A DNA stretch of 64,000 bases, from the IMG/VR virus record IMGVR_UViG_3300028914_000064, positions 1 through 64,000 of that record. One strand, written 5' to 3'. The translations under genes were made by a program, and so were the position numbers. This DNA comes from a virus (lineage: Duplodnaviria > Caudoviricetes). Numbering within the stretch: the stretch's first letter is position 1; every line of letters starts with the position of its first letter. This document shows, piece by piece, positions 126-44,459 of the stretch. Under the pieces are notes generated by a model. That model was not told the DNA's origin and searched no databases. It saw nothing but the letters and a program-made list of their open reading frames with translations.

Positions 126-136
126 AGTTTTAGTAG
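118..136 (-). other. Shufflon crossover site 1 (partial)
   Basis: Minus strand CTACTAAAACTAGCAAATT; has the TAGCAAWT core but lacks the TTCG arm. Confidence 0.55.
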
Positions 137-479: not shown

Positions 480-490
480 ATATTGCGAAA
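472..490 (-). other. Shufflon crossover site 2
   Basis: Minus strand TTTCGCAATATAGCAATTT. Confidence 0.75.
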
Positions 491-1592: not shown

Positions 1593-1629
1593 GTGCAATT
1601 TTTTAATAAAGTATGAGGCGATAAAAAAC

Positions 1630-1648
1630 ATGCGCAATTTAGCAATCT
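1630..1648 (+). other. Shufflon crossover site 3
   Basis: ATGCGCAATTTAGCAATCT, inverted relative to sites 1, 2 and 4. Confidence 0.65.
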
Positions 1649-1753
1649 CATAAAATCTGCCTAGCTACTTATGTGGATAGAAACAGTTTTACACACGGTA
1701 CTCTTGCACAGGTTGGCTTGAATTTTGTTTTGACTTATTACTATACTTCTTGA
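1641..1753 (+). pseudogene. Internally deleted tail-fibre cassette C
   Basis: SNLIKSA* from the site; a shifted frame (1661-1753) reads LATYVDRNSFTHGTLAQVGLNFVLTYYYTS*, resembling a cassette C-terminus. Confidence 0.5.
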
Positions 1754-1770
1754 AAATATTTATCCGTCAA

Positions 1771-2151
1771 TCAAGTAGTTAGGTATGTACAACCAAGAAA
1801 CATTGAGTCATAACCTGTTGTGCTTATTCCGTAGCCTGTTTTAAGTCCTCCATCACTACGCACTTCAAAAGAAACTGCTCTTCTTTGGTTAGGGTCACCT
1901 GATTTTGTTAGAAAACCGCTAAAATATAGATTACTTGCTTGCGGACGAAAACCACTTGGGATAGTGCAAATATTATAGGAATTTGGAATCATATCTTGTC
2001 CATTTGGTCTTGTACAAGCAACTTGAAGTGTGACTACTTTTTGAGATTTTTGTATAAGGTTCACCGTATAGGTAAGCCCCCATCCCGCGTCGCTTACGTA
2101 TGCATTAGATATACTAGGGTCTACTTGGTCTATGCGAGAACTCAAATTGCT
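1771..2151 (-). CDS. Start-less tail-fibre tip cassette D
   Basis: SNLSSRIDQV...ICTIPSGFRPQ...GCTYLTT; xxPxGFRP fibre-tip motif; in-frame stop just upstream of the site. Confidence 0.78.
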   Translation of the reverse strand, partial: SNLSSRIDQVDPSISNAYVSDAGWGLTYTVNLIQKSQKVVTLQVACTRPNGQDMIPNSYNICTIPSGFRPQASNLYFSGFLTKSGDPNQRRAVSFEVRSDGGLKTGYGISTTGYDSMFLGCTYLTT

Positions 2152-2162
2152 ATTTTACGAAC
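2144..2162 (-). other. Shufflon crossover site 4
   Basis: Minus strand GTTCGTAAAATAGCAATTT. Confidence 0.75.
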
Positions 2163-6600: not shown

Positions 6601-9600
6601 AAAAGATAAATAGAGCTAATGCTGCTATAAAGACAGATATGCTCAATTCGATTCTTAAAGACTTAAAAGGAAGTAAATTCAATAAAACTTTTATAAGTCC
6701 TTTTCAAGACCAGATAACTCAACTTCGTGAACAAGTGAAGCATCTTCTATCTCTTGATGATGTTGATTATGATAGTATTAAGAAGCTTCAAACAGAACTT
6801 GAAAGATTAAAAGATAGTGTTTCAGATAAAGATACTCTACGCACTTTAACAAAAGCAGAAACTACGGCTGTTACAAATCTGCAAAGAAAGATTAGTAATT
6901 TTTTAAAACAGAATTCTGCCATGTCTCAAGAATTCAAAGACGAATTGATAGATCTTCTAAAAACTTTAAGTAATGCTGGCGGAATTACTGAAGATACTTT
7001 TAGAAAAGTAGCTGAAAGATTTAATTTAATCGATTCGATAATTTCAGCAATAGATAAAAAGGGTCTTTCATTTGGTGCTCATTTCTTTAAAATGCTTAAG
7101 AGTGCAAATGCTCAATTTCTTGCTACTTATTTTAGTTTCCAGGATCTTGTCAGATATTTGAGAGAAGGTTTGCAAATAATAGTTGAAGTAGATACTGCCC
7201 TTACAGAGCTTAGAAAAGTAAGTGATGCTACTGATAAGAGATTATCACAAAGTTTTAGAGAATCTGCAAAGACTGCAAAAGAACTTGGAGATACTATTTC
7301 AAATGTTATTGGAGTTACAGCTGATTGGGCAAGACTTGGATACTCTGTGGATGATGCAGAAAAGCTTGCCAAAGTTACTACTCTCTTTATGACGGTTGGC
7401 GACAATATGACTTCAGAGGATTCAAGTTCCTATCTTATTTCCACCTTAAAAGGTTTTGGGAAAGCTGCTGATGAAGCTGAAGATATTGTAGATGTTTATA
7501 ATGAAGTTGCTAACAACTGGGCCATTGATACAGCCGGTATAGGTGAAGCTTTACAGAGATCTGCTGCATCCTTTTATGCTGCAAATACTGATCTTGAAAA
7601 AGCAGTGGCTCTTATTACTGCTACTAATACTGTTATTCAAGATCCTTCTTCTGTTGGTACTTTATGGAAAACCTTGTCTGCTCGTATTAGAGGAGCAAAA
7701 ACAGAATTACAAGAGCTTGATGAAGAAGAAGATGAATTTACTGAAACAACATCAAAATTAAGAGATCTTGTAATGGGTCTTACAGGTTTCGATATTTTAG
7801 AAAGTGATCTAAAAACATATAAGGATATCTATGAGATTATTTTGGGCATTGGAGAAAAATGGCAAGATCTCTCAGATATTGAGCAGGCTTCACTTGCAGA
7901 AGCGTTAGCCGGAAAAAGAAATAGTAATGCTCTTCTTGCTGTGTTAAATAATCTTGATACTCTTCAAGGAGCATATAAGTCAGCGCTTGAAGCCGAGGGA
8001 AGTGCAAGAAAAGAGCAAGAAAATTATGCACGTTCTGTACAGTATTCTATTGATGTATTAAAAGCTGCTTCACAAGAATTTTGGACTACTTTAATAAATT
8101 CAGATGGAGCAAAATTTATAATTGATTTCCTTACAAAGGTTGTTGAATTTCTTACAGAGATAACTCGTATCACTCATGGTAGTCTTGCTCTTGGAGGAGG
8201 CATATTATTAGTATTGTTTGGAAAAGATCCGGAAGGGTTCGCAAACAATTTTATTAAGCTTTTAGATTCTTTGGGCAAAGATTTAAAATTCATAACATTA
8301 GAAATGGATTCTATGGGAAGAGTTACAAAAAGGACAGTTGATACTTTTAAAGCATTGCAATTATCAATAAAAGCTGTGATTGCTATTTTAGTAATAGCAG
8401 CTGCTATAAAAGCATGGCAACACTTTAATGTTACTGTAGAAGAAACACAAACTGAGATCGATGAGCTCACTCAAAAGATAAAAGGAATAAAAGATGAAAT
8501 AAGTGAGCTTGAAAATATTGAGTCAAAAACAGATAATCAAAAGGAGAGATTATCTTATCTTAGGAGCGAACTTGAGATAAAAGAAAAACTTCTAAAAATA
8601 GAAGAACGTAGAAAAGCTGCCGAATCAGTAACTTCTAAAAATGATAGTTGGGTAAAAAAATTCACCGATTCTTTTGATAAAGATAATTACACGACTTATC
8701 TAGAAAATTTCAAAGAAGATAAACGTGTAAAAGCTAATGATATGAATCCTGGAGATTTAGCACAAGTAGAAGAAACCTTTCAACCAAATCTTGATATTAA
8801 AGCAGATTCTGAATTATATCAAGAATTAACAGAAAAAGTTAAAGGATATGAAAATCAGCTAGCTAGTCTTACAAAAGGTTCTAAAGAATATAATAGAGTA
8901 AATTCTGATCTCACAAAAACTTCTGCTAAGCGTGATGAAATAGAAAGTTCGATCATAAATAATTACGAAAAGGAATATGAAGATTATCTGCTTTTAACTC
9001 AAAAGCTTAACGAGATTAAAGAAATAAGAGAAGGTTTATCAAAAGATGATCCACTTCAGGGAACTTATATTGAATTAGAAAAAGGCTATGAAGAATATAT
9101 AGAAAAGGAAAGAGATTTTCTTGTTAAAGTCAGAGAGCTTTTGGGTAAAGATACTTCTGATCTTACTATTGATAAAAGACTTAATGAAGCAAATTCTAAG
9201 ATTGCAAAGGGAAATAAAAAAGAACTTGCAAAACTAGAAGAAGAAGTAAAATATTTTTCTTTAGAAGAAAAAGAAGCTTGGATAATTGCTACTGAAGGAG
9301 CAAAAGATGCCGCTGAAGCTCTTAAGATGTACGAAGAATATTTATTGGAAGTACAGGAAGCTGCAGAGAATGGTGTTGCTACTAAGTTTGATCAGGCAAA
9401 ATTTTCTGAACAGGTAAATAAATTAGATGCTCTTCAGTCAGCATATAATACGTTTGTTGAAAACGTAGAAAATGGCGAATCAAAGATTAATCTTGATATA
9501 TCTGATATCGATGCTCTTCGTGAAGATTTCGGATCACTTGAATCTTTTGATGAATTTGAACTTAAAGTTACGGCTGATACTTCTGGTGTTGATGAAATAC

Positions 9601-12600
9601 AAGATGCTTTTGATACTCTTCTTACTGAGCATGTGAATCAAAAAATCGCCTTAAAGAAAATAAACGATGAAAATAAGGATATGATTCGCACTCAGATTGA
9701 GATGGAAGGTGTTACTCATGAAAGTGCTCAAAGATTTGTTGAATATAAGTTAGAAGAAGCAAAAGCTGCAGAGTATGCTTTAGAAAAAGAATCAGAGTTT
9801 CAAGCAAAGTTACAAGAAACTGCACGAATAGCTACACTTTCTCGCGATCAAGTTGAGAAATCGTTAAAAGAGTTCGAACAAGGTGGTGAAGTAAATCTTA
9901 CTCTTCGTCCAAAGGTTGATACTTCTTTGTTGGAAGAAGCTGGTTGGACTGATGCTGGTAATGGAATAGCGACATTGTTTACAAGCACCTTTTCTAATGA
10001 AACTGAAGATGTCGCTATAAATTTCACTCCTATCTTAGCAGATGAGAATGGAAAATTAGATAGAATCCTTTCTCCAGAAGCTCTTCAAAAATATGCTGAA
10101 GAAGTAATTGCCGGAGTTCATGAAGATGATTTGCATCTTCAGATCGGAGCAAAATTCACAGGTGAAGATGCTATTGAACAAGCTGAACAAGCTGCTCAAA
10201 AAATACATCAGCTTCAAGCTATATATTATGATCAAATGGGAGATGATCAATTTGCAGCATTTATTGAAGAAGATGTTTATGCTTTGATGGATGAAGCCGA
10301 ACAATTAGGAATTAACACTACTGCTTTAGCTGCATATAAAGCAGAAAAGTTTGCAACTGGGGAACATCCAATAAGTACTGCTTTAGATCGAGCTGAATTA
10401 TTAGCCCTCGTTCAAATGCTTCAAATTACTGAAGATGAAATGATCACATTGAGAAAGTGTATTGATCTTTTGAATGGCGGCGAGATAATGTCTGAAGAAC
10501 GACGTAATACTATAATACATCGTATTCAAGAGATTACTGCTGAATCAATACAGAAAGCAACCAATGTTAAGGTCAATTATGATTATGGCAAAGCAGCAAA
10601 AGGTGCGTCTAAAGGTGGTAAAGAAGCTGGAGATGCTTATGTTGAAGCTTATGAGAAAGAATTAAAGAAATTAGAAGATCTCAGGGATAGAGGTCTTATT
10701 TCTGAAAAAGAATATCTTAATCGTTTAAAGCCTCTTATTGATAAGTACTTTAAGGACAGAGCAAAGTATGCTGAGAAATATGCTGAAGAACTCAAAAAGT
10801 ATATGGATCAGATGCTGAGCTATTATAATTCTGTAATCTCAGGTGTTACTACTCTTTTGGATAAGAGGATAAATGCTCTTCAAAAGAACAAAGAGACTAC
10901 AATAGATGCTTTAAATAAAGAAAAAGATGCCGCTCAGGAACGTTATCAGGCTGAGATTGATGGAATTCAGGATGAACTTGATGCTTTGGAGGATCGTCAG
11001 GATGCACTTGATGACCAGCAAAAAGCCCTTGATGAACAGATTGATGCATTAAATGAGCAGATTGGTGGAATTGATAAGGAAATCGATAGATATCATGACA
11101 TGATAGATGCCATCAATGAAGCTAATGATGCAAGGCAAAGAGAGATCAATCTTCAGAAGGCACAATATGAACTTGAAAGAGCTCAGAATCAGCGAACCAA
11201 ATTGGTATATACCGGTGAAGTCGGTCAGATGCGTTATGAGAGGGATGAATCTACTGTTCGTGATACTCAGGAAAACGTAAGGCAGGCAAAAGACCAAATT
11301 GCTATTGCTGCTCTTGAAAAGAAGATAGATCTTCTTGAGAAAGAAAAAGAGCGTATCGAGGAAGAGATAGATGTCATTGAGAAACAAAAAGATGCGATTG
11401 ATAAGCAAAAAGATGCTTTAAATGAACAGTCAAAGGATCTTCAGAAACAACAGGAAGAAGTTCAGAAAGCAATGGAATCTTCTTCAAAGTATTATGAAAA
11501 GCTTATAAAAAAGCAGGAAGAATTCTTTGATGCTCAGATTGCTGCTCTTGAGAAGACCAAGACAAAATGGGAAGAACTTGCTGAGATAGATGAGATATCA
11601 AAAGCATGGGGTCTTGTCTCTGATGAGATGACTTCTCTTGGATTTACTGTTGAAGATGTTCTTAATGATGTTCCCGGTGCTTTTGATGCATTTAAAGAAC
11701 AGTATATTGCCGTTCTTCAGGAGATGCATAAAGGAGATCAGGGATATCTTGACGGTCTTAAAGAAAATGCATCTGCTATCCCAACAGAATATGGCAAGGT
11801 AACTCAGTCTGTTACGGAAGCTAAAGGGCCTATTGATAACCTCTCCTCTTCTGTTTCAACTGCATCATCCAATGTATCGACTCTTGGAACTTCTGCATCA
11901 ACTGCATCTACAAGTGTAAATAACTTAAAGACTGCTTCTCAGGGAATTGCTGAAAATTTTGAAGCATTAAATGAGGTTTCATCGCTTGAAAATCTAAATG
12001 ATGCTCTTAAACTTGTAGAAGAATCTCTTATAAATATCAAAACCCTCATCGGAGGTATGGGAGATCCTGGTACCGGTTCTATTTATGGTGCGATCGGTGC
12101 TTTAAATACATTGACACTTGATAATCTAAAGTCTGCATTTGAAGAACTTGCAGGAGCTGTAGGTGGCGTTATCTCTGCTCTTACGGGAAGTATAGTTGGA
12201 AGTTCTGGTGGAAGTACTACTCTGTTTAAGAAGTATACTACTAATACAACTGCTGCAAGTATGACAGGTGGTGGACTTATTAGTGGAATACAAGCAGTAA
12301 AAGATAAGACTGATGACGTGATCGGAACAAGTGCTGAAGAAGACGGTGCTAATGCTATTGGCTCATTTAGAGAACTATTAAAAGCGATTGAAAATGTTGT
12401 AGACCAGATTGGAGTAGATAAAGAAAAGAAGGGTACGCTACTTTATTCTATAGGCCTTATTTCAAAGGTAACTCAGAATGAGATAAATGGTAGTGGTGGT
12501 GCGATAAGTGCATTTAATGATCTTGAGTCAAAGATTGGAAGTGTAAAAAATGCTGCTAATGCTCTTTTATCTGTGCTTAATGATATATCTTCTGTAGAAC

Positions 12601-13181
12601 TTCCAGATCCAGGTTCGCATATGTCAAGCTCTGGAAATCAGCATGGTGGTTCTTCTGGTTCATGGGGAAAATCAAAGGCTCAGGGTGATCCTAATGTAAA
12701 AACAAATGGAAGAAGTCTTGTTGGAGAACTTGGTCCGGAAGTTGTTGTTCGTGGAGATAAATACAAAGTTGTCGGAGTTAATGGTCCAGAATTTGTTAAT
12801 CTTAAAAAAGGAGATATTGTCCTTAACAGTAAAGATACAGAAGAGCTTTTTGATAAAAAGGATCTTCATGGTAAGGCATTTGCTGAAGGAAGTAAGTTTA
12901 CTCCATTCGATCTAAGTGATTCTTATAAAGGACTGCTTGACAAAGTAAAGACCATGGACTTCCCTACAATGCGTGAGATAAAGTCTTCTATCGATAATCT
13001 TACAAGGACTGTGCAGTCAGAGATTCAGAATGTCACAACGACAAGAACCAAAGTTACTCAGAACAATACTTTCAATATAAGTGGAGTTACGGGTGAAGAA
13101 GTTGCCGAGAAGATAAATAATACCCTTGTAAAGACATTTTCAGGAATGAGCCTGAACGCATATCAAAGAAGCATGGCTTAA
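3675..13181 (+). CDS. Tail tape measure protein (3168 aa)
   Basis: TP901-type TMP core (VDTALTELRKVSD...ADWARLGYS...KTLSARIRG), long coiled coils, C-terminal LVGELGPEVVV motif. Confidence 0.9.
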   Translation: MRIMRKNEGNIIQIGFYSDVEGFIKEIRQKLSYVKDWGLKDSFKEEVDDLEKMLSNLSKSFSDGMSAKLDTKTFATFKKEMANEINEVVKRIETLEDTVQGLVLTFDSADGGKFKTYISSVSSDVNNLKTTIEYTVKAIEELKSVISRSDGKIQFADDRTTVLLNKELSELQEIKSLREQIASIIDDNKSGSTEISPNMKEAKEQVEDYGKKLEEAQKKLSKGLAGSVGGRKLTTLQYELAVVTEQIASLFQDAGGKYGDKVKDVFSSKIREMMYNAEGEVLTFEERTQKRIEKVREGLNQLGNPSALSMDKARTTLFAPLDISTSSKDIIDKAIKIINKAQKEIDNNPLKIEFVLSSKYSSRKTNSLLSEWQKQIDNIEDDELREKFKGLYETIAKDFKKEIKFTVTPDINNAEAKVNKLIADIKKKVESKIHLQFEIKEADLRKIQGNLDKLTSNLKVNLSDLNIVEVTDSIKEATESLQKMLGVFSKEDLDSIFERMRTSIEGINGSLRGGDKNELVSQLKEILVLYKQYKDMGGTNTLTDLGGAKNVQNWLSKHADDEIQTSNSFVSEGKNGIQGYAEGIREGIPEVVKATEELVKAALKTLQKAQESYSLIGKNSIKEYVKEFEKATDELKRVASKLSDDTIKSSSISQQKKKASTQKTKKKADNALVSDSQPLISKNVSKEIEKAATAIEKEGKSASTAKKKKEDFAKANEKVAKASKKTAEETKSATEAIEAEQKKAEKAREAALQYEQRTRRANDQKVGNDREAALQYEQRTRRANTQKEEKEREAALQYEQKVQKAYTQKIDKERESALQYEQRTRMANAQKEETDREAVLQYEQKTRRANAQKEEKEREAALQYEQKTRRANIQQEEKDREAALQYEQKVQRAYAQKLEKEREATLQYEQKTRRANAQKEEKERETILQYEQKVQKAYAQKTEKEREAALQYEQKARMANAQKAEKESEQVLRETQKINRANAAIKTDMLNSILKDLKGSKFNKTFISPFQDQITQLREQVKHLLSLDDVDYDSIKKLQTELERLKDSVSDKDTLRTLTKAETTAVTNLQRKISNFLKQNSAMSQEFKDELIDLLKTLSNAGGITEDTFRKVAERFNLIDSIISAIDKKGLSFGAHFFKMLKSANAQFLATYFSFQDLVRYLREGLQIIVEVDTALTELRKVSDATDKRLSQSFRESAKTAKELGDTISNVIGVTADWARLGYSVDDAEKLAKVTTLFMTVGDNMTSEDSSSYLISTLKGFGKAADEAEDIVDVYNEVANNWAIDTAGIGEALQRSAASFYAANTDLEKAVALITATNTVIQDPSSVGTLWKTLSARIRGAKTELQELDEEEDEFTETTSKLRDLVMGLTGFDILESDLKTYKDIYEIILGIGEKWQDLSDIEQASLAEALAGKRNSNALLAVLNNLDTLQGAYKSALEAEGSARKEQENYARSVQYSIDVLKAASQEFWTTLINSDGAKFIIDFLTKVVEFLTEITRITHGSLALGGGILLVLFGKDPEGFANNFIKLLDSLGKDLKFITLEMDSMGRVTKRTVDTFKALQLSIKAVIAILVIAAAIKAWQHFNVTVEETQTEIDELTQKIKGIKDEISELENIESKTDNQKERLSYLRSELEIKEKLLKIEERRKAAESVTSKNDSWVKKFTDSFDKDNYTTYLENFKEDKRVKANDMNPGDLAQVEETFQPNLDIKADSELYQELTEKVKGYENQLASLTKGSKEYNRVNSDLTKTSAKRDEIESSIINNYEKEYEDYLLLTQKLNEIKEIREGLSKDDPLQGTYIELEKGYEEYIEKERDFLVKVRELLGKDTSDLTIDKRLNEANSKIAKGNKKELAKLEEEVKYFSLEEKEAWIIATEGAKDAAEALKMYEEYLLEVQEAAENGVATKFDQAKFSEQVNKLDALQSAYNTFVENVENGESKINLDISDIDALREDFGSLESFDEFELKVTADTSGVDEIQDAFDTLLTEHVNQKIALKKINDENKDMIRTQIEMEGVTHESAQRFVEYKLEEAKAAEYALEKESEFQAKLQETARIATLSRDQVEKSLKEFEQGGEVNLTLRPKVDTSLLEEAGWTDAGNGIATLFTSTFSNETEDVAINFTPILADENGKLDRILSPEALQKYAEEVIAGVHEDDLHLQIGAKFTGEDAIEQAEQAAQKIHQLQAIYYDQMGDDQFAAFIEEDVYALMDEAEQLGINTTALAAYKAEKFATGEHPISTALDRAELLALVQMLQITEDEMITLRKCIDLLNGGEIMSEERRNTIIHRIQEITAESIQKATNVKVNYDYGKAAKGASKGGKEAGDAYVEAYEKELKKLEDLRDRGLISEKEYLNRLKPLIDKYFKDRAKYAEKYAEELKKYMDQMLSYYNSVISGVTTLLDKRINALQKNKETTIDALNKEKDAAQERYQAEIDGIQDELDALEDRQDALDDQQKALDEQIDALNEQIGGIDKEIDRYHDMIDAINEANDARQREINLQKAQYELERAQNQRTKLVYTGEVGQMRYERDESTVRDTQENVRQAKDQIAIAALEKKIDLLEKEKERIEEEIDVIEKQKDAIDKQKDALNEQSKDLQKQQEEVQKAMESSSKYYEKLIKKQEEFFDAQIAALEKTKTKWEELAEIDEISKAWGLVSDEMTSLGFTVEDVLNDVPGAFDAFKEQYIAVLQEMHKGDQGYLDGLKENASAIPTEYGKVTQSVTEAKGPIDNLSSSVSTASSNVSTLGTSASTASTSVNNLKTASQGIAENFEALNEVSSLENLNDALKLVEESLINIKTLIGGMGDPGTGSIYGAIGALNTLTLDNLKSAFEELAGAVGGVISALTGSIVGSSGGSTTLFKKYTTNTTAASMTGGGLISGIQAVKDKTDDVIGTSAEEDGANAIGSFRELLKAIENVVDQIGVDKEKKGTLLYSIGLISKVTQNEINGSGGAISAFNDLESKIGSVKNAANALLSVLNDISSVELPDPGSHMSSSGNQHGGSSGSWGKSKAQGDPNVKTNGRSLVGELGPEVVVRGDKYKVVGVNGPEFVNLKKGDIVLNSKDTEELFDKKDLHGKAFAEGSKFTPFDLSDSYKGLLDKVKTMDFPTMREIKSSIDNLTRTVQSEIQNVTTTRTKVTQNNTFNISGVTGEEVAEKINNTLVKTFSGMSLNAYQRSMA
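5916..6640 (+). repeat. 66-bp (22-aa) tandem coding repeat inside the TMP
   Basis: 10 copies of about REAALQYEQKTRRANAQKEEKE plus one degenerate copy. Confidence 0.9.
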
Positions 13182-35973: not shown

Positions 35974-37452
35974 ATGTACGGACCGCATACAAAGGAAGAC
36001 TTCAAGCTTTTTCTCAAAGATGTAGAGGACTGTAAGAGATTAAGTGGAAAATCGGAATATGATTTTAGATTAAGAAGAAGGACATTAAATGTTGTTTGGA
36101 TGATTACTGATTCTCTTAGAGAGATTCCATTTGAAGAACTAATGAGTAATATGTATTTTAAATGTTCCGATGATATGAAACCAATCTTAAATTTTTATGA
36201 AGACTGTCTTATTGATAGCAAACTTAATAATGATCAATTTAGATTGAAATTACATGATCGATTATTGGTTTTTCGTGATAAGATTAAAGCTGAGCACAAG
36301 CAATGTATTTTAGTTGAATTTTTTAACATATTGACACAAGCTTGTATAAGAAAAGATTATTCTAAACCTATAATTAAAAAGATATTCAGTGCATATCTTT
36401 CTTTAGTACAACAAAGCATTACATATTTTTATGATGATATTCATAAATATTTTTATGCAGTAAAAGATGATGGAACATTTTTAACAATAGATGATCCTTG
36501 GCCTATGATTGATTGGGCTCATGAAGAGTATGCTGATAAGACATTTAAAAGCATAGTAGAAGGAAAGGAAATTGATACAAAAAGGCTATTAGAAGAAACT
36601 AAGAAGAGATATGCGAAATATGGAATGATAGTTCATGATGTCGAAGATATGATCCAGATAAGCACGATTTCTAATAATTTTGGAAATGTAACAGCGTCTA
36701 TGGCTTATTATATGTCTGAGCAGACCAAGGATATGCTTCCTCAAAATGAAGTGGGGCTTAAAATTGAAAGCAATCCAAAAAAATGGTTGAATACAGAGTA
36801 TTATAAAGAGAGACTGCTTAAGAGAAATTTTGCATTGCCCGGATGCATAAAAACAACATGTGAATTTGCGGGAGATATTAAGGAAGTATATTTTAGAGAA
36901 GTTATCAAAGATGACAATGTTGTTATGCTTTATAGAGTAGTGACAAAAACTAGGGGAGAATATTCGGATATTCCAGGTTATTATATTCCTAATGAAAAGT
37001 TTATGTTTTTGTATTACAACGTTGCTGAAGGAGCAAGAGAAGAAAGTTCAATTATAGAAAATTTTATCTTGGAATTATATTTTCTTCTTACTGTTAGGCG
37101 TACTGAAGAAGAAAAACAAATGAAACCTTATTCGTTACCACTTATTGCAGAAGAGTATGAAGATGTTTATAAGGAACCAAGATGGAAAAATCAACCGATA
37201 ATATCCTTCTCTTTATATGGGCGAGAAGAAAAGAAAGGAAGGGAACAAAAAAGAGCGTATAAACAAGGTGTTTATGAATATGATGATGCCAAAATTGGAT
37301 GTTTTATAAGAAGATTACCTGTAGGACAGACAGCTTCTTGGGAAGCAATAACAAATGCTGCTAAATATGGGTATGAGCTTGAAAAAGGATATACATTTGT
37401 TACACCATTTGCTAGAAAACAACGTCACATAAAAGTCTTAGGAGGACTATGA
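35974..37452 (+). CDS. Hypothetical protein (492 aa)
   Basis: Long ORF with RBS; no family recognised. Confidence 0.7.
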   Translation: MYGPHTKEDFKLFLKDVEDCKRLSGKSEYDFRLRRRTLNVVWMITDSLREIPFEELMSNMYFKCSDDMKPILNFYEDCLIDSKLNNDQFRLKLHDRLLVFRDKIKAEHKQCILVEFFNILTQACIRKDYSKPIIKKIFSAYLSLVQQSITYFYDDIHKYFYAVKDDGTFLTIDDPWPMIDWAHEEYADKTFKSIVEGKEIDTKRLLEETKKRYAKYGMIVHDVEDMIQISTISNNFGNVTASMAYYMSEQTKDMLPQNEVGLKIESNPKKWLNTEYYKERLLKRNFALPGCIKTTCEFAGDIKEVYFREVIKDDNVVMLYRVVTKTRGEYSDIPGYYIPNEKFMFLYYNVAEGAREESSIIENFILELYFLLTVRRTEEEKQMKPYSLPLIAEEYEDVYKEPRWKNQPIISFSLYGREEKKGREQKRAYKQGVYEYDDAKIGCFIRRLPVGQTASWEAITNAAKYGYELEKGYTFVTPFARKQRHIKVLGGL

Positions 37453-37934
37453 AAACAGAGTATATTCATTACGGATTTTCTGAATTGTTACCCATAAAAC
37501 CGATTAGAAATGAAAGAAATTTTTGGAAGCCTCAAGGGGGATTATGGGCAAGCCCAGTAGATTCTCCTTTAAGTTGGAATATATGGTGTGAAAGTAATCA
37601 TTTTAGAAAAAATGAATTAGGGAATTCTTTTATGTTCACATTGAAAAATGATGCTAAGATAATTCATATATATAGTGTGGATGATTTAAAAGGACTACCA
37701 AGACAAACTACTAACATTTCATTTTTTAATGATCATGCTTGTTATTTGGACTTTGAAAAAATTGAAAAAGAATATGATGGTATTGAATTACATCTATCTG
37801 AGGAACGTTTTGGAGATTCAAAAAATGGAGATGGAATTCATTATGGATTATATTTTACGTTGTATGGATGGGATTGTGATTCTATCATACTTTTTCATAA
37901 TAAAGCAATAGAAAAATGGTGGAAATCGCGATAG
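37449..37934 (+). CDS. Conserved phage hypothetical protein
   Basis: YIHYG...KPQGGLWASP...YDGIE...YGWDCDS. Confidence 0.7.
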   Translation: MKTEYIHYGFSELLPIKPIRNERNFWKPQGGLWASPVDSPLSWNIWCESNHFRKNELGNSFMFTLKNDAKIIHIYSVDDLKGLPRQTTNISFFNDHACYLDFEKIEKEYDGIELHLSEERFGDSKNGDGIHYGLYFTLYGWDCDSIILFHNKAIEKWWKSR

Positions 37935-38031
37935 AAGATAAGTAAATCTACATTTTCGTAAAATTTCGGTTTTACGAAAAACTTATGAGGATAAATTTTG
38001 ATTTTATATAATATTATGGAGAGGGAGAAAA

Positions 38032-38313
38032 ATGGAAAAACAGATATATTATGATTTTGCAAGGAATTTAAAGGAAAAGTTAATAAATGAATGTCATGGA
38101 TATGTAAAGACTGAGATTTATCCAGATATTGATACAATAATAATTAAAATTACTTTTAAAGAGTTTGAGTTTCGTTATCCAATAAATGAAATTGCTGATT
38201 CTTTTTATTGCGGATCATCAGATCAGATAGTAAATAAAATAATAGATAAATATAAGAAGGCGATTTTAAAAGGTTTCTTTAAATCAAAAGAAAAGAAAGA
38301 ACAATATATATAA
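38032..38313 (+). CDS. Hypothetical protein
   Basis: RBS and ORF. Confidence 0.6.
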   Translation: MEKQIYYDFARNLKEKLINECHGYVKTEIYPDIDTIIIKITFKEFEFRYPINEIADSFYCGSSDQIVNKIIDKYKKAILKGFFKSKEKKEQYI

Positions 38314-38355
38314 ATTTGAAAGTATTTTGAGAAAAATGCATTATGTGTTATAATT

Positions 38356-38529
38356 TTACAACAAGTGGTAGCAGTACCCTTGAAGTATAAAAAGCAAATA
38401 AAAACCGCTCAACTTCGCAGGGTAGGAGCGGTTTTTATTATTCTCTATAAATTTGAGAACAAGCTCGATAATGTTAATCAAGCAGTTAATCACTGCTACA
38501 ATAGCTGTTACTAACTTGATATAATCCAT
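38356..38529 (-). CDS. Small hydrophobic peptide, type I toxin-like (locus 3)
   Basis: MDYIKLVTAIVAVINCLINIIELVLKF; GGGAGG RBS; overlapping AAAAACCGCTC...GAGCGGTTTTT hairpin. Confidence 0.5.
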   Translation of the reverse strand: MDYIKLVTAIVAVINCLINIIELVLKFIENNKNRSYPAKLSGFYLLFILQGYCYHLL

Positions 38530-38889
38530 ATCGATGCCGTTCCTCCCTATCAATTACTATCAGTTGTATGCATTATATTTTTTTATTTATAATCTTTATT
38601 TTTAAATATTGTTAATAAGATAATATTTGAAAGTATTCGTATTCAATAGTTTTTATATTTTTCATATATCTTTTAGACGTTCAGTCCTCTTCTATCAAGA
38701 TAAAAATCCCATATTATAGTTTATTGAAAAGTTGTTCTTTGTAATTTTTTTTATAATAGAATTTGAGAAAACAACAAAAAAATATTAATTTTATAAAAAA
38801 AAGATATTTTTTTGTATAAAAAAGTGAATATTCTGTCATTTTAGTGTAAAATAAGAAGAACATATAAATTTTAAAGACGGAACATCAAG

Positions 38890-39432
38890 TTGAGACAAAA
38901 GGAGATAATTATGAGTTTTATCAGATCGATACCGCCAAAAACATTGCACGAACAGTTTGGATTATATCATGGGAATTGGTTCCCTGAAATGGATAGGTCT
39001 TGGGAAGATTTTGATAGAGGTTATTCCGTTTGTTCGAGAATGATAAACACGAAATTTGGGAATGTTGAACATGTTTCAATTGTTAAACATAGAAAAGAAG
39101 GTGAGCCATTAGTAACATTTGATGGAGAAAGAAATCTTACGTGGGCAGAAAAAATGATGATTAAAAATGAGCTTTTTGGAGAAGATCGATTTGCAATAGA
39201 GGTTTTTCCAAAAAAAGAATATCTTGTAGATACTGCTGACACATATCATTTATGGGTATTTAATAAAAAATATGATATGATTTTTGGCATTCATCCAAAA
39301 GAGTATTCAAAGGCAATTAATAGAGGGGTTGCCCCATTGTCTAAGGACGAGCTTACCTTACTTCAGAAAAAATTTGATGAACAAAAAGATAATGGTGTTG
39401 ATTATGAACAACTTTTTAATTATTTATGCTGA
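38890..39432 (+). CDS. Conserved phage hypothetical protein
   Basis: W.E...IKNELFGE..AIEVFP...LVD.A..YHLWV motif. Confidence 0.65.
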   Translation: MRQKEIIMSFIRSIPPKTLHEQFGLYHGNWFPEMDRSWEDFDRGYSVCSRMINTKFGNVEHVSIVKHRKEGEPLVTFDGERNLTWAEKMMIKNELFGEDRFAIEVFPKKEYLVDTADTYHLWVFNKKYDMIFGIHPKEYSKAINRGVAPLSKDELTLLQKKFDEQKDNGVDYEQLFNYLC

Positions 39433-39946
39433 ACAATTATGTCAAGGGGTTCCAGGAACACTATCTTTTTTATTTAATGTAGCAACAAGGTATAAAAATT
39501 CGAATGAAAAGATAAAAGCTATATCAGGTTTTAGTCGTATGCTAGATAATAAGATAGTGGGTTCAAAACTATATATGTTATGGAATGATTGTCTTAATAG
39601 AGATATAGATAAAACAATATATGTAATGCTGCATGATTCTATAGATGAGATTAATAGGCATATCAATTTTGAAAGCGGAAAAGGAATCCCCTATTTAAGT
39701 AATGAACCAAAACCATATATCAAAGAACATGATGAATGGTGGATCTTTACATTTTTAAATGGTGATTCTGAAAAGGTTGGAAAATGTATAAAAATTAGAG
39801 GAACTTATGGCGAAGCTAGAAATAAAATGGTAAGTCGTTATGGAACTTATTTTGGGTTTCAATATAGTGAAAAAGAATGGGCAGAAAAATGGAATGATCC
39901 CAATAGGGATTATCAAATGGAAGATATTTTAGAGATTATAAAATAA
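39404..39946 (+). CDS. Hypothetical protein
   Basis: GSKLYMLWNDC motif; probable start at MNNFL. Confidence 0.6.
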   Translation: MNNFLIIYAEQLCQGVPGTLSFLFNVATRYKNSNEKIKAISGFSRMLDNKIVGSKLYMLWNDCLNRDIDKTIYVMLHDSIDEINRHINFESGKGIPYLSNEPKPYIKEHDEWWIFTFLNGDSEKVGKCIKIRGTYGEARNKMVSRYGTYFGFQYSEKEWAEKWNDPNRDYQMEDILEIIK

Positions 39947-40013
39947 AACATTTCATAAAAAAAAGAACAATATATATTCCTAAAATCAAACTAGAAAAAG
40001 GGGCAAGAAAAAT

Positions 40014-40415
40014 ATGAGTGGTTTATATAATCTGATATATGGATATAATCCGGCATGTGTTCTATTCCTTCCTATGCTTGGTAGAAAATACGATGAATAT
40101 CCAAGATTTAGAGATTGTTTTATTTTTAAAGAAGATAATAAATATTATATTGATGTTTATACAAGAGTTGGCAGTTGTTATCATAATCAAGGTTATGGGG
40201 AAGAATTATTGTATGAAGATGAAAATTTTGTAAAGACATTTGATGATGACTTTGATCCAACTTATGCTACTTTCAGATTTAATATTCCAAAAAAATGGGA
40301 AAAAGATTTTAGTCTTTTAATCAATGGAAAGAAAGAAGGCTTATCAAAAGAATATTTTATTGAATTAAAGAAACATTATTCTGAGGAATTAATAAGCAAG
40401 TTTTTCCAAAAGTGA
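40014..40415 (+). CDS. Conserved phage hypothetical protein
   Basis: PRFRDCF...VYTRVG...DDDFDPTYATF. Confidence 0.65.
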   Translation: MSGLYNLIYGYNPACVLFLPMLGRKYDEYPRFRDCFIFKEDNKYYIDVYTRVGSCYHNQGYGEELLYEDENFVKTFDDDFDPTYATFRFNIPKKWEKDFSLLINGKKEGLSKEYFIELKKHYSEELISKFFQK

Positions 40416-40458
40416 GAAAATTGAGGAAGTTAAAGATGAATGTAGAAAGGTTATATAA

Positions 40459-40825
40459 ATGATAAAAAATGATAGTTATGAGAATTGGCTTTTAAATACA
40501 GAACATGGAATATATGATTGTACGAATAATGGTAAGTGTAGCGGATGTGGCGACTGTTGTAGCAATATTTTACCTATAACAAAAAAAGAGATTAATGAAA
40601 TAAAGAAATATATAAAAGATTATGGTATTAAAAAACAGGAACATAGATCCTTCTTTTTAAGTGCAGACACGATTGATAAAGTGTACGATTTATCCAGTTC
40701 GTCCTTCTATTTGTAGAATCTTTTTATGTTCTAACGCTGCAAAAAGAGAAATTCATTTAAGTGATGCAGGGAGAAAAAACGTTAATATGAATGAAGTGTT
40801 TTTTGTTGGGAGGATAAATAAATGA
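40459..40825 (+). pseudogene. YkgJ-like cysteine-cluster protein, frameshifted
   Basis: CSGCGDCC N-terminal half; KCTIYPVRPSICRIFLC in another frame after about 40678. Confidence 0.7.
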
Positions 40826-41127
40826 CATTTGATGAATTTATGGCAAAATATGAAGATCGTTTAAAAGATATATGCAAACCCAAACCAGCAAGTGTTTTTT
40901 ATGAATTGGATGAAAAAGGAGGTATGCATACTAGAATGAAAGGAAGAAATATAGATATTCAATTTGTAGTAGCTATAATAATAAAAGACCTTGTAAAAGA
41001 TTGTAATTTAACTTATGATGAGTATTTTGGTTTGGTAAAAGAATTATCTCGTCATATGAATGATGAAAAAAAAGAAGAGAATAATTCAACTTTTAATAAA
41101 ATGTTTAAAGATTTTTTCGCAAAATAG
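40822..41127 (+). CDS. Hypothetical protein (paralogue of 42710-43078)
   Basis: Shared KPA..Y..DE.G....KGRN.....VA.II.D motif. Confidence 0.65.
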   Translation: MTFDEFMAKYEDRLKDICKPKPASVFYELDEKGGMHTRMKGRNIDIQFVVAIIIKDLVKDCNLTYDEYFGLVKELSRHMNDEKKEENNSTFNKMFKDFFAK

Positions 41128-41133
41128 CAAAAT
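41115..41133 (+). other. Remote shufflon crossover site 5
   Basis: TTTCGCAAAATAGCAAAAT; 16/19 identical to site 2. Confidence 0.75.
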
Positions 41134-41437
41134 CAATGCCGAGTGTATCGGCTGGAACACAACGGCTAAAGATGTAACATCTTATTCCTTCACAACTTCA
41201 ACCACTTGGGCGGCGCCGTATAATGGATATTTTTGCATCCAAGTAGCTTCAAACACCGACACTCAACATGATGTTAGTATAACTTGCGGTAATAAACAGG
41301 TAGCGGGTCAATATTTCGTATATAAATATCAAAAACTGATGGCATATCTGCCATTAAGAAAAGGAACGGGGCTAGTAATCACAGGTAATGTCGATATTCT
41401 TATGATAACTTGTATGACGGGCGTTTTTAATCCGTAA
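41126..41437 (+). CDS. Start-less tail-fibre tip cassette E
   Basis: SKINAECIGW...WAAPYNGYF...LPLRKG fibre-tip pattern. Confidence 0.7.
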   Translation, partial: SKINAECIGWNTTAKDVTSYSFTTSTTWAAPYNGYFCIQVASNTDTQHDVSITCGNKQVAGQYFVYKYQKLMAYLPLRKGTGLVITGNVDILMITCMTGVFNP

Positions 41438-41439
41438 AA

Positions 41440-41733
41440 TCAATAACTGAATGGATAAAAGATAGCGGTCGCACCAGAGTCAATTCTTGTAGTCTTAAGC
41501 TTGGTTCCTTTTTTAACGTATATGGCAGAACCTGAACCTAAGTTATTAACTGGCGTTACTTCAAAAACGTTAAACATAAAGGCACTATTTTTATCATAAA
41601 ATTCAACTACCACAGCCGTACCAGCGCCAGCGCCTCCCGCTATTTTCACATAGCCATCAGAAGTTGTTGTATACAGAACGTTTAAATCAAGGGCTACCGC
41701 GGTTCCTTTCGCTCCAGCGTTTGCCAATTTGCT
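41440..41733 (-). CDS. Start-less tail-fibre tip cassette F
   Basis: SKLANAGAKG...YTTTSDGYV...IYVKKG...FYPF. Confidence 0.72.
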   Translation of the reverse strand, partial: SKLANAGAKGTAVALDLNVLYTTTSDGYVKIAGGAGAGTAVVVEFYDKNSAFMFNVFEVTPVNNLGSGSAIYVKKGTKLKTTRIDSGATAIFYPFSY

Positions 41734-41744
41734 AAATGACGAAA
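41726..41744 (-). other. Remote shufflon crossover site 6
   Basis: Minus strand TTTCGTCATTTAGCAAATT. Confidence 0.72.
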
Positions 41745-42709: not shown

Positions 42710-43078
42710 ATGAAGGATGATTTTGAATTTGAATTAATAAAAGCTGAATTACTTGATGCTTTTTTTGAACAACTTACTAATGTTAAACCAGCTAAAATAG
42801 AATATAGTGTAGATGAACATGGTGTAGTTAAAGGGTATATAAAAGGAAGAAATGCTGAATTACTGCTACTTGTGGCGACAATTATTAGCGATAGAATAAA
42901 AAAAATAACGGAAGATATTGAGGGTTTTTCTGATACATATTTAAAACTTTTAAAAGAAATTATTTGTGTGCTTCAAGATTATAGTATGACTTTTGAAAAA
43001 TCTAATGAACAAAATAAAAAGAATGATGAGAATTCATTAAAAAAATTCAATGATATTTTTAAGGACTTGGATTTATAA
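42710..43078 (+). CDS. Hypothetical protein (paralogue of 40822-41127)
   Basis: RBS; shared motif. Confidence 0.65.
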   Translation: MKDDFEFELIKAELLDAFFEQLTNVKPAKIEYSVDEHGVVKGYIKGRNAELLLLVATIISDRIKKITEDIEGFSDTYLKLLKEIICVLQDYSMTFEKSNEQNKKNDENSLKKFNDIFKDLDL

Positions 43079-43292: not shown

Positions 43293-44459
43293 ATGATTAA
43301 ATCTATGAAAGTAATGTTACTTCCTAACAACGTTCAAAAGACAAGGCTATTCCAACACGCAGGAGCGGCAAGATTTCTTTATAATTGGGCTCTTTCAATG
43401 GAAGAAAAGAATTATAAATTAGGCGGAAAATTCATATCATATTATGAGCTTGCAAAAGAACTTACAGAGCTTAAGAGAACAGATGAATATGCATGGCTTA
43501 ACGAAATATCAATCACAACATGCCAAAAGGCTATAAAAGATGCCTGTGATGCCTATTCTAACTTTTTTAAGAAAAGGGCAAAATTTCCCAAATATAAATC
43601 AAAGGATAAGACAAAACCAAGTTTCTTTCAGACAGACCAGGTTATAGAATTTACCGATACACATGTAAAGCTAAGTTGTTTGTCCCTTAGCAGGAAGGCA
43701 AATAGAAAACAATTAAACTGGGTAAGACTTGCAGAACATGGCAAGATACCAATAAATGTAAAGCATAGCAATCCGAGGATAACTTACGATGGTCTTAATT
43801 GGTGGATAAGCGTAGGGATAGAATATCCTGATAAGAATGTAAACTTATCTGAAGAAGGATTAGGTGTTGATCTAGGAATAAGGAACCTTGCTGTGTGTTC
43901 TGATGATAGCATTTATCCTAACATCAATAAGACCAAGGCGATCAAAGATTTAGAGAAGAGAAAACGAAGATTGCAACGAAGTATATCCAGGAAATATGAG
44001 ATGAACAAAAAGGGGGATGAATTTGTAAAGACAAAAAATATAATAAAAGATGAAAAAAAGTTATTAAAGATGCACCACAGGTTGAGTAATATTAGGAAAA
44101 ACTATTTACATCATACATCAAAAGAAATAGTTGAAAAGAATCCTAAATTCATCTGTATTGACGACCTAAATATTCAGAGCATGATGAAGAATAAATACCT
44201 TGCAAAAGCAATTCAGGAACAGTCACTTTATGAATTTTCAAGGCAGCTTGAATATAAGAGTAATTTCAAAGGAATCCAATTTATAAAAGCAGACAGGAAA
44301 TTTCCATCATCTAAGAAATGCAGTCAATGTGGCAGGATAAAGAAAGATTTAAAACCTTATCAAAAGACATATAAGTGTGAGTGTGGAAATGTTATTGATG
44401 TACATAAGCAAGCGGCGCTCAATCTTAAAACATATGGAGAAGAGAATATTGCAGAATAA
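43293..44459 (+). CDS. tnpB: IS607-type TnpB derivative with degenerate RuvC active site, CRISPR-associated
   Basis: MIKSMKVMLLPN..Q HTH start; RuvC-I GVDLG intact; RuvC-II CIDDLN (E to D); RuvC-III IDVHKQAALNL (DRD to DVH); zinc finger intact; no tnpA nearby. Confidence 0.85.
   Translation: MIKSMKVMLLPNNVQKTRLFQHAGAARFLYNWALSMEEKNYKLGGKFISYYELAKELTELKRTDEYAWLNEISITTCQKAIKDACDAYSNFFKKRAKFPKYKSKDKTKPSFFQTDQVIEFTDTHVKLSCLSLSRKANRKQLNWVRLAEHGKIPINVKHSNPRITYDGLNWWISVGIEYPDKNVNLSEEGLGVDLGIRNLAVCSDDSIYPNINKTKAIKDLEKRKRRLQRSISRKYEMNKKGDEFVKTKNIIKDEKKLLKMHHRLSNIRKNYLHHTSKEIVEKNPKFICIDDLNIQSMMKNKYLAKAIQEQSLYEFSRQLEYKSNFKGIQFIKADRKFPSSKKCSQCGRIKKDLKPYQKTYKCECGNVIDVHKQAALNLKTYGEENIAE

Follow-up and report, generated by a model that had tools for sequence, protein, structure and literature searches.

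Silent fibre-tip cassettes of a large phage in a probable second docking locus, 39-42 kb away from its main shufflon

In the window analysed here (the whole stretch of 64,000 nucleotides at positions 1 to 64,000 of IMG/VR record IMGVR_UViG_3300028914_000064), a 630-bp block at 41115-41744 carries two intact start-less open reading frames (ORFs), cassettes E and F, placed tail to tail. The source is a circular genome of about 126.4 kb of a large gut or rumen phage. The pair is probably a silent set of fibre tips of the phage's own shufflon, parked in a second docking locus 39-42 kb away. We place E and F in the shufflon, and in a conserved second docking locus, because of their sites, their homologies and the arrangements in two relatives (L018 and L017); the observations show which sites and reading frames are present, what the cassettes are, that the locus is conserved and that breakpoints fall at the site core.

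Layout of the remote cassette block

An earlier note, made from the letters alone, had proposed two start-less ORFs here, and both were recovered, with stops separated by 2 bp (Table 1). A plausible start codon of its own is absent from each. Both open from the flanking site in the frame TCG nnn nnn AGC AAx, which is the frame of the recombinase-proximal sites. The cassettes had been described as more GC-rich than their flanks; measured values are 0.40 for E and 0.41 for F against 0.26-0.27, the same as in the recombinase-adjacent cassettes (0.37-0.39). The distance from the recombinase, put at about 39 kb in the note, is 39.6 kb to S5, and S1 and S6 lie 42.2 kb apart. Tail and replication genes separate the E/F block from the main shufflon, so that the two do not form one contiguous cluster.

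Unrelated accessory genes surround the block. The TAG within S5 is the stop codon of the 101-aa gene on its left, as had been noticed; judged by eye from the two translations, this gene resembles a putative paralogue at 42710-43078. Frameshifting at the T-run of S5, as a candidate way to join the 101-aa protein to E, was set aside, E lying in the +1 frame and the protein being of an accessory, non-structural type. The inverted sites SB and S5 bracket the intervening 38.95-kb segment, the cassette side of each pointing outward, and no inverted form of this segment was observed.

Table 1. Features of the remote cassette block, the main shufflon and their crossover sites. Positions are those of the window unless marked as genome positions; bits are weight-matrix scores.
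Feature	Position	Strand	Details
Silent cassette D, 5' part	1-136	-	degenerate site, core TAGCAA at 122-127
Silent cassette A with site	153-490	-	site at 472-490
Site A (SA), TTTCGCAATATAGCAATTT	472-490	-	belongs to silent cassette A; 29.5 bits
Tyrosine recombinase, 328 aa	561-1547	+	presumed shufflon invertase; Pfam Phage_integrase 2e-28, Phage_int_SAM_4
Site SC, TGCGCAATTTAGCAATCT	1627-1652	+	slot after recombinase; 16.9 bits
Silent cassette B with site	1771-2162	-	site at 2144-2162
Site B (SB), GTTCGTAAAATAGCAATTT	2144-2162	-	belongs to silent cassette B; 24.3 bits
Tail, replication and accessory segment	2163-41114		38.95 kb; all genes on +
Accessory gene, 101 aa	40822-41127	+	last three codons and stop inside S5; out of frame with E
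Site S5, TTTCGCAAAATAGCAAAAT	41115-41133	+	cassette frame reads S-Q-N-S-K-I; 22.7 bits
Cassette E	41117-41437	+	stop 41435-41437; 106 codons; silent; receptor-binding tip domain
Cassette F	41742-41440	-	stop 41440-41442; 100 codons; silent; receptor-binding tip domain
Site S6, TTTCGTCATTTAGCAAATT	41726-41744	-	inverted relative to S5 and S1; reads S-S-F-S-K-L; 20.7 bits
Constant fibre gene	genome 125570 onwards		other contig end; contains S1
Site S1	genome 125964-125982	+	in constant fibre gene; 28.7 bits

Crossover sites

We built a weight matrix from 19 shufflon sites (17 from other loci plus the phage's own A and B, with S5 and S6 excluded) and scanned the complete genome (126,091 bp) with it on both strands. 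The six highest scores are exactly A, S1, B, S5, S6 and SC, and the next best position reaches 11.8 bits. S5 and S6 rank fourth and fifth genome-wide, 9 bits above background, and all six sites stand at least 5 bits above it. S1, SC and S5 lie on the plus strand; SA, SB, S6 and the degenerate SD lie on the minus strand. All sites have a common frame, TCG/ACG nnn nnn AGC AAx, at the junction between a constant 5' part and a start-less 3' segment, and those at the E/F block are 18-19 bp long. Matrix ranks and shared frame uphold the proposal that the block is bounded by inverted sites matching, in the same phase, those beside the recombinase.

Each position has its own left half-site: the fibre has TACGCAAAT, the slot behind the recombinase TGCGSAATT and the remote locus TTCGCAAAW. 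The cassette carries the TAGCAA core and the sequence rightward of it, and the left half stays with the position, a half-site pattern typical of a shufflon. The left half of S6 deviates from the usual one where the 19 training sites are themselves less conserved.

Predicted products of cassettes E and F

Over 100% of its length, E is 89% identical in amino acids to the expressed C-termini of two receptor-binding proteins from unrelated phages: P0001 (384 aa), whose gene is the second one behind a Dit_N gene, and P0002 (550 aa), which has a BppU_N N-terminus and is encoded after a Prophage_tail gene. The DNA homology of E to both genes begins at the site and finishes at the stop, and dN/dS for E is 0.09-0.11 at a dS of 0.5-0.6. 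In phmmer searches F matches the C-terminal ends of the fibre-like proteins P0097 (195 aa) and P0098 (685 aa, repeat-rich), as well as silent-cassette ORFs such as P0094. The sequences support the assignment of E and F as receptor-binding tip cassettes whose sites belong to one family with those of the recombinase-proximal shufflon. Joined to the constant fibre part, E and F are predicted to yield in-frame proteins of 238 aa (fibre-E) and 232 aa (fibre-F), each with one stop only, at its end, and the fibre-E junction would read TQISKINAECIGW, as against SQISKINSECIGW in the natural fused proteins P0001 and P0002.

AF2 models are compact in both cases, an all-beta sandwich for E (pLDDT 74) and a beta sandwich for F (pLDDT 89). 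Foldseek searches of the PDB with both models returned nothing at E <= 0.001; the weak matches (TNF/C1q-like, CBM35/36 and toxin receptor-binding domains) are those of a non-specific beta-sandwich, and because they are weak and non-specific we leave the fold search out as functional evidence. Pfam and PHROGs searches with E and F gave zero matches, blastn of the block against GenBank phages gave none, and searches of IMG/VR with E and with the 101-aa protein found nothing. No significant similarity links the cassettes with one another or with the active tip, the 18-bp site alone being common to them.

Main shufflon

The recombinase is Xer-like by NCBIfam, at scores below the curated cut-offs. 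Its gene has the same position in L005, L018, L019 and L025, and its placement beside cassettes is conserved in five relatives (these four and L021). The record's contig breaks inside the main shufflon, and compared with an ENA contig of the same phage it lacks 346 bp there, into which the remainder of cassette D falls. In contig L008 the same cassette D has a canonical left half-site, and the two sequences part at the core. SC is followed here only by a short remnant, the slot holding a full cassette in L018, L019 and L021. In PHROGs, cassette B weakly matches the C-terminus of a minor tail protein.

Variants between samples at the main locus break at site cores, and contigs terminate at cores. 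L004 ends at the core and L005 2 nt past it, the final 119-mer of L017 starts from the TAGCAA of S5, and L008 and L007 part ways at a core. The system has the marks of a shufflon (a recombinase gene, at least three sites in both orientations and a common frame), but its cassettes are not all gathered in a single cluster beside the constant gene and the recombinase.

Relatives and cassette turnover

In L018, whose constant fibre part is 93% identical to that of this phage, E-like (68%) and F-like (57%) cassettes lie tail to tail directly after the recombinase, and in L019 an F-like cassette (63%) lies between fibre and recombinase; F is thus 57-63% identical in amino acids to main-shufflon cassettes of these two relatives. 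L017 is 94% identical through the TAGCAA of S5 and then continues into an unrelated cassette, the homology ending at window position 41130. Its orthologue of the 101-aa gene (90% amino acid identity) ends in the same site with a different cassette next, and a second remote pair is present at L017:1611-2299. Synteny in related phages, proposed with the original observation as a check, therefore turns up the pair in the main shufflon of L018 and the remote locus with another cassette in L017. These alignments support the view that the remote locus has exchanged cassettes exactly at the site.

One cassette, bounded by a site on its left, occurs in three unrelated phage backbones; outside this phage the right-hand site is seen in L002 only. 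In two small phages (L002 and L004) no recombinase was found within about 10 kb of the E-type pair. A complete 83-kb relative, whose recombinase is 96% identical, has all four of its sites adjoining the recombinase, and the remote locus is therefore not required by this recombinase family.

Arrangement of the remote pair in assemblies

Across S5 and S6 all contigs show one arrangement at 99.9-100% identity. ENA assemblies ERZ27257203, ERZ27257204 and ERZ27257207, SRR9008937 and JGI 3300037453 contain this phage, and ERZ27291671 a relative. The set comprises 10 contigs with the left neighbour gene and 8 with the right, from at least five samples and three assembly sources, and, being made of consensus assemblies and of collections possibly without near-identical records, it is weak for minority arrangements. 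A k=31 Logan contig (L009) passes unbroken through S5 and S6. Two signs of activity named in the earlier note did not appear: the E/F block has the same orientation and context in all 8-10 contigs, with no inverted copy, and junctions of the constant fibre with E or F are absent from fibre homologues (0/89 with an E or F tip) and from JGI contigs, in an exact-pattern scan that may omit near-identical records. Either fusion requires the 42-kb inversion. Exact-pattern scans of JGI and IMG/VR for the g101-site junction, which missed a known JGI contig (L012), also returned nothing.

Contig breaks within E/F (41399-41511; ERZ27257203 and one JGI contig) were rejected as a sign of rearrangement. 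At 41399-41511 the two ENA contigs have 113 bp in common, a length below k, and their identity to the window is 100%, which fits a coverage gap and not a graph branch.

The note's idea of a distributed archive or relocated cassette block holds in general, because of the site family, the L018 counterparts and the L017 exchange at the site; signs of current use, the other part of that idea, were not seen.

Explanations for the remote pair

We favour, as probable, the reading that E and F are a silent tip pair of the phage's own shufflon in a second docking locus. At this locus a small accessory gene has the inverted sites S5 and S6 at its 3' end; the locus is kept in at least one related phage, and its contents have been replaced through recombination in the core. 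The pair would most likely serve as a seldom-reached reserve and not as a frequently flipping switch. We infer that S5 and S6 are substrates of the recombinase at 561-1547, and two routes can be envisaged. The pair would be swapped if two phage genome copies, or two co-infecting phages that share the site family, crossed over at both sites. Alternatively, F would be joined in frame to the constant part of the fibre once the 42.2-kb arc between S1 and S6 had inverted, a local flip between S5 and S6 would then present E, and inversion between SB and S5 (39 kb) could finally return the tail and replication genes to their original orientation. Against this reading stands the effect of the 42-kb inversion, which would turn the tail genes against head-to-fibre transcription and may be costly to the phage. 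Relocation of the pair by two inversions alone was considered and fails, as the outer site ends in direct orientation with a hybrid site. A wider reading, which we regard as tentative and rather doubtful, is a split shufflon in which two tip blocks bracket the 39-kb segment and are exchanged by paired 40-kb inversions or double crossover, site-flanked pairs being traded among unrelated phages of the same host, some of them without an adjoining recombinase.

Routine long-range phase variation would have the 42-kb S1-S6 arc inverted regularly, E and F flipped and the 39-kb segment free to turn between SB and S5, so that some virions carry fibre-E or fibre-F. All four sites needed are present, high-scoring and rightly oriented, both fusions are in frame, and E and F are intact and under purifying selection; the last 119-mer of the L017 contig starts at the TAGCAA of S5, and such an end is the de Bruijn branch point expected if, in that sample, the remote L017 cassette were also joined to another left half-site. 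We nevertheless consider it unlikely: the 8-10 contigs, L009 included, hold no alternative arrangement, neither fusion proteins nor junctions were found, the tail module would be reversed relative to the late head genes, and described phage shufflons (Rin, BV01-like) work over 1-3 kb. The pair might instead be an inert passenger, a portable unit that landed after the 101-aa gene through pseudo-sites or illegitimate recombination, is unused and will decay. Its unrelated accessory neighbours, its foreign GC content, the similar pairs found elsewhere (among other accessory genes in L017, beside the receptor-binding genes in unrelated small phages) and the arrangement fixed in every assembly would suit such an origin, which we rate as quite improbable. 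Neither cassette is disrupted, comparison with expressed homologues gives a dN/dS of about 0.1 at a dS of 0.5-0.6, the site scores lie far above background, and a 94%-identical relative has the same locus with another cassette joined exactly at the core, which argues for repeated use of the site and not for a single accident.

That no site-specific recombination is involved at the remote locus, the 18-mer being a conserved shaft/tip coding junction (S-Q-x-S-N/K-L/I) and cassettes moving by homologous recombination, is very improbable. The motif is indeed translated in fused proteins (SQISKINSECIGW in P0001 and P0002, for example), and the L002 and L004 phages carry their pairs without a recombinase within about 10 kb. 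However, 15-18 bp is very short for homologous exchange, S5 is untranslated in the cassette frame at its present place yet is a perfect site, and left halves are position-specific even where non-coding (SC, S5, S6 and the outer silent-cassette sites); moreover, the sites always form inverted pairs round tail-to-tail cassettes, with the recombinase embedded among them in five relatives. Misplacement of the block by the assembler can practically be dismissed: the record's contig does break in the main shufflon, but identical S5, S6 and both flanks recur in independent ENA (MEGAHIT, three samples) and Logan (SRR9008937) contigs, and a JGI contig (3300037453) spans the left flank, S5 and E.

Other mechanisms were rejected. 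An insertion sequence or transposon does not fit a block that has only the E and F ORFs and no duplication in the bases outside S5 and S6. The TnpB gene at 43293-44459 lies outside the block, 1.5 kb away, and carriage of the pair by IS605/TnpB was discarded; the TnpB beside the second remote pair of L017 is a different element (30% identical), and the geometry is contrary. A gene-conversion archive of the pilS type was discounted, extended homology being absent and the 18-bp site alone being shared.

Significance

Since E and F are stored about 40 kb from the fibre gene and the recombinase, the alternative fibre-tip set is spread over two places in the genome, which is not known to have been described for this kind of system. 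Phage shufflons have so far been understood as compact local switches. If they can be dispersed, site-specific recombinases could remodel tens of kilobases of a phage genome, the fibre locus alone would not reveal a phage's host-range repertoire, and annotation pipelines would overlook spare receptor-binding tips among accessory genes. The site-bounded cassette in three unrelated backbones suggests that phages of the gut and rumen share a site-based market in modules for host recognition, which bears on host range prediction.

Comparison with known systems

In the R64 shufflon (Rci) and in Min of p15B, multi-site inversions exchange the C-terminal part of a fibre or adhesin. The R64 site has a conserved arm that moves with the segment and a variable second arm, the pattern seen at the sites here. 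Both systems are contiguous clusters, Min having a serine recombinase, and we know of no segment tens of kilobases long between sites in either. Neisseria pilE/pilS likewise has silent cassettes, without promoters or starts, at loci distant from a single expression locus, but these are copied in by gene conversion that depends on RecA, is non-reciprocal and relies on extended homology, whereas here a site-specific recombinase is encoded and only the 18-bp site is shared. In laboratory Cre/FLP cassette exchange, a segment flanked by inverted sites is swapped between DNA molecules by double reciprocal crossover. This geometry matches the E/F unit and its presence in unrelated phages, although the Cre/FLP version is engineered; in the literature searched we found no description of natural trading of receptor-binding tips by cassette exchange in phages.

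The earlier note's statement that known shufflons keep their cassettes next to the invertase is true of the Rin and BV01-like systems; it does not extend to the two small phages, whose E-type pairs lie more than about 10 kb from any recombinase found. In BV01-like Phocaeicola phages (PMC13596623), as here, a multi-cassette shufflon overlaps the distal tail-fibre gene with a flanking recombinase; reads showed all configurations within a 1.7-kb window, the motif is different and dispersed cassettes are not reported (PMC13596623). The closely comparable Rin shufflon of Bifidobacterium prophages (Mavrich et al. 2018, PMC6109161) is also phage-encoded, with a tyrosine recombinase, a constant N-terminal gene on one side and dissimilar C-terminal receptor-binding cassettes (6-30% identity), each behind a short asymmetric crossover site. 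The Rin site is the 11-bp TTCCCTAACCC, whereas the sites here belong to another family, ..CGCAAAWTAGCAAWWT; every Rin cassette lies between the constant gene and the recombinase (PMC6109161), whereas here the recombinase sits amid the cassettes and one cassette pair lies 39-42 kb away.

A remote cassette pair bounded by shufflon sites

The virus record is a single contig of 126,091 bp, and its first 64 kb make up the window. Structural genes match the SPbeta-type Pfam families YonD, YonB, YomW and YomU, and the genome also has a Rep3 replication gene. Both record ends fall inside the main shufflon (window 1-136; genome 125570-126091, L001:13571-14092), and the constant fibre gene, which terminates in the site S1, starts at genome 125570 at the far contig end. 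The same phage is represented in ENA by a contig (L007; 126,578 bp, k141; ~126,437 bp as a circle) that spans this junction and contains 346 bp of the main shufflon that the record lacks (L007:10523-10868). The expressed fibre is P0005 (247 aa); a naive circular join of the record gives a false 197-aa fibre instead. Past the main locus lie tail, replication and accessory genes, which fill 39 kb and are uniformly on the + strand; a 101-aa gene comes next, with S5, E, F and S6 beyond it. S1 and S6 are separated by an arc of 42.2 kb, and SB (the site of cassette B) and S5 by a segment of 38.95 kb. Window 3675-13181 encodes a tape-measure-like protein of 3168 aa with ~14 tandem units of ~22 residues (..EREAALQYEQ(K/R)TRRANAQKEEK..) at residues ~720-1010.

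Features of the main shufflon and of the remote locus (window coordinates)
Feature	Position	Strand	Remarks
Main locus 1, constant part with S1, then active cassette		+	S1 at end of constant fibre gene, ATACGCAAATTAGCAATTT; reads T-Q-I-S-N-L
Main locus 2, cassette D		-	degenerate site
Main locus 3, cassette A		-	site 472-490 (-)
Main locus 4, tyrosine recombinase	561-1547	+	
Main locus 5, site SC		+	then only a remnant
Main locus 6, cassette B		-	site 2144-2162 (-)
Site S5	start of E	+	19 bp, TTTCGCAAAATAGCAAAAT
Cassette E	41117-41437	+	open frame, no usable start codon
Cassette F	41742-41440	-	open frame, no usable start codon
Site S6	start of F	-	19 bp, TTTCGTCATTTAGCAAATT

The earlier note had described E and F as two start-less, tail-to-tail ORFs more GC-rich than their surroundings, and both points hold: the stops are 2 bp apart (window 41115-41744), and GC content is 0.40-0.41 in the block, 0.26-0.27 in the flanks and 0.37-0.39 in the recombinase-proximal cassettes. 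Its claim that the bounding sites match those beside the recombinase in the same phase is confirmed by a shared frame (TCG nnn nnn AGC AAx, as at recombinase-side sites A and B) and by a matrix scan. As a chance test, a weight matrix of 19 shufflon sites (17 from other loci plus the phage's own A and B, with S5 and S6 left out) was run over the whole genome on both strands. The top six scores were exactly the six sites (A, 29.5; S1, 28.7; B, 24.3; S5, 22.7; S6, 20.7; SC, 16.9 bits), and the next-best position scored 11.8 bits. The TAG stop of the 101-aa gene (40822-41127) does lie within S5, as had been noted, and the left half of S5 encodes the final residues of its protein. By eye and unaligned, this gene resembles a possible paralogue of 122 aa 1.6 kb downstream (42710-43078), with similar ends (..MFKDFFAK and ..DIFKDLDL).

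Sequence evidence for E and F as receptor-binding tips

Comparison with other phages indicates that E and F are genuine receptor-binding tips. Over its full length, E is 89% identical to the C-terminal 106 residues of P0001, a 384-aa protein encoded two genes past a Dit_N gene on a small siphophage-like contig (L002, L003), and of P0002, a 550-aa protein with a BppU_N N-terminus encoded downstream of a Prophage_tail gene (L004). Aligned over the three contexts of E, DNA homology begins exactly at the site (TTCGCAAAWTAGCAAAAT) and ends at the stop codon. F matches the C-termini of two fibre-like proteins, P0097 with 195 aa and P0098 with 685 aa and long repeats, as well as short ORFs that open with the site motif, such as P0094. 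AlphaFold models of both are compact beta sandwiches (pLDDT 89 for F, 74 for E); fold searches of the PDB gave weak, non-specific matches, which carry no weight in the assignment.

The E-type tip of L002 and L004 is followed, tail to tail, by a second cassette, which terminates in an inverted site in L002; the L004 contig terminates exactly at the core of that site. These two unrelated small siphophage-like contigs, which differ in their receptor-binding N-termini, have both the E-type cassette and its partner in common, with a site as left bound (L002:10008-10729; L004:8513-9225). No recombinase was called within ~10 kb of the pair in either contig; an enzyme whose gene lies elsewhere, or one from a different phage, may flip it. 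Directly past the outer site of the L002 partner lies a long perfect hairpin (L002:10775-10830), whose arms contain TTCGCAAT, a sequence similar to the left half of a site; the hairpin may be no more than a terminator.

Cassette repertoire and the remote locus in relatives

In the relative L018, whose constant fibre part is 93% identical, the recombinase is directly followed by a + site, an E-like cassette (68% amino acid identity), a tail-to-tail F-like cassette (57%) and an inverted site, and in L019 the stretch that separates fibre and recombinase contains an F-like cassette (63%). The E/F pair is therefore part of the repertoire of this shufflon family and occupies the expected place in a relative. 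A RelB / YafQ-ParE toxin-antitoxin pair separates the L018 shufflon from the first tail genes (L018:13605-14152) and is missing there in the window. Among the fibre homologues, the site motif is restricted to the closest, P0003-P0007, and those further removed have a different, fixed domain at their end.

The second locus is conserved in L017, whose DNA matches window 36756-38315 and 38779-41130 at 93-94% identity. This homology ends exactly past the TAGCAA of S5; the cassette that follows, in the same frame, is unrelated. A second pair of remote cassettes with inverted sites lies in an accessory region of L017 (L017:1611-2299), flanked by a 93-aa gene and TnpB; window 38316-38778 is without counterpart. 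This TnpB is an ordinary IS605-type copy, 97% identical to that of L018 and 30% to that of the window. In a complete 83-kb phage whose recombinase is 96% identical, there are only four sites, each of them beside the recombinase, and no remote locus. Contig L021 (JAFYHY010000145.1, 38.9 kb), whose DNA is otherwise unrelated, encodes a near-identical recombinase and shares the site family; it is binned in a water-buffalo 'Aeriscardovia' MAG; the binning is probably an error for a phage contig, and the record points to a ruminant gut habitat.

Exchange breakpoints at the site core and possible routes to E and F

Left half-sites are position-specific, with TACGCAAAT at the fibre gene, TGCGSAATT past the recombinase and TTCGCAAAW at the remote locus, and across loci the sequence to the right of TAGCAA goes with the cassette. 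This is the pattern expected from crossover at or next to the core. Breakpoints fall at the core in four comparisons: window and L017 at S5, L008 and L007 at D, E in its three backbones, and contig ends. L008, from another sample, is 99.9% identical to L007 over fibre gene, active cassette and D and diverges exactly at TAGCAA (L008:1074-1213; L007:10986-11004), where D of L008 has a left half-site of the canonical form and other DNA downstream (terminator, new gene start). Besides L004, L005 ends 2 nt past the SC core, and the last 119-mer of L017, a k119 contig, begins exactly at the TAGCAA of S5. A de Bruijn graph would branch at this position if the cassette also had another left half-site in that sample, which a single contig can only suggest.

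We infer that the recombinase of the main locus recognises S5 and S6. Recombination between S1 (+) and S6 (-) would cause a 42.2-kb inversion, from which an in-frame fibre-F of 232 aa (junction TQISKLANAG) would result. Flipping of the pair by S5 x S6 would put E on offer, giving a fibre-E of 238 aa with the junction TQISKINAECIGW; natural fused proteins read SQISKINSECIGW at the equivalent junction. SB (-) and S5 (+) lie at either end of the 39-kb segment and have their cassette sides turned outward; a second inversion between them, after S1 x S6, would restore tail-gene orientation with the cassette blocks having traded places. Alternatively, a double crossover at both sites, between genome copies or co-infecting phages, would swap the pair with no large inversion, which fits the E-type pair common to L002 and L004 and site-bounded on the left. 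The window shares only E with these contigs, its partner F being a different cassette. For the first creation of the remote locus, no derivation by inversions alone succeeded.

Weighing of the readings

E and F are probably a parked reserve in a conserved docking locus that is rarely reached. Routine long-range switching, for which the in-frame junctions would serve, is unlikely: none of 89 fibre homologues carries an E or F tip, and a degenerate pattern for fibre-E and fibre-F junctions found none in JGI contigs, a scan that may miss near-identical records. The 101-aa gene was found on ten contigs and the right-hand neighbour ORF on eight; every readable contig has the window's arrangement at 99.9-100% identity, in assemblies that show the majority form only. 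Together, these negatives argue only weakly against rearranged forms. Three fibres with 100% identical constant parts have three different tips, two of them absent from this genome; turnover of cassette sets between strains is therefore rapid. Misassembly of the locus is of negligible probability. One of the contigs in the window arrangement, a k=31 Logan contig, crosses S5 as well as S6.

That the pair is an inert passenger is quite improbable. Between E and the expressed L002 and L004 tips, dN/dS is 0.09-0.11 at dS 0.5-0.6, and E is therefore no dead relic that has been drifting for any large part of this divergence. Exchange by homology only, in which cassettes would move by homologous recombination at the short shared site motif, is very improbable.

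Comparison with known systems

Tyrosine-recombinase phage shufflons are known from Rin of Bifidobacterium prophages (PMC6109161) and from BV01-like Phocaeicola phages (PMC13596623). The main locus is a new member of this group and has a site family of its own. In this phage the six cassettes have no sequence relationship to one another, and those of the Rin shufflon are likewise mutually unrelated (PMC6109161). The literature searched contained no report of a phage whose shufflon cassettes are dispersed. The dispersed E/F pair departs from shufflons in one descriptive feature, contiguity, and shares with them the recombinase gene, the short sites in both orientations and the common reading frame at the junction. 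It is stored like a pilS-type silent copy, but would work like a shufflon cassette.
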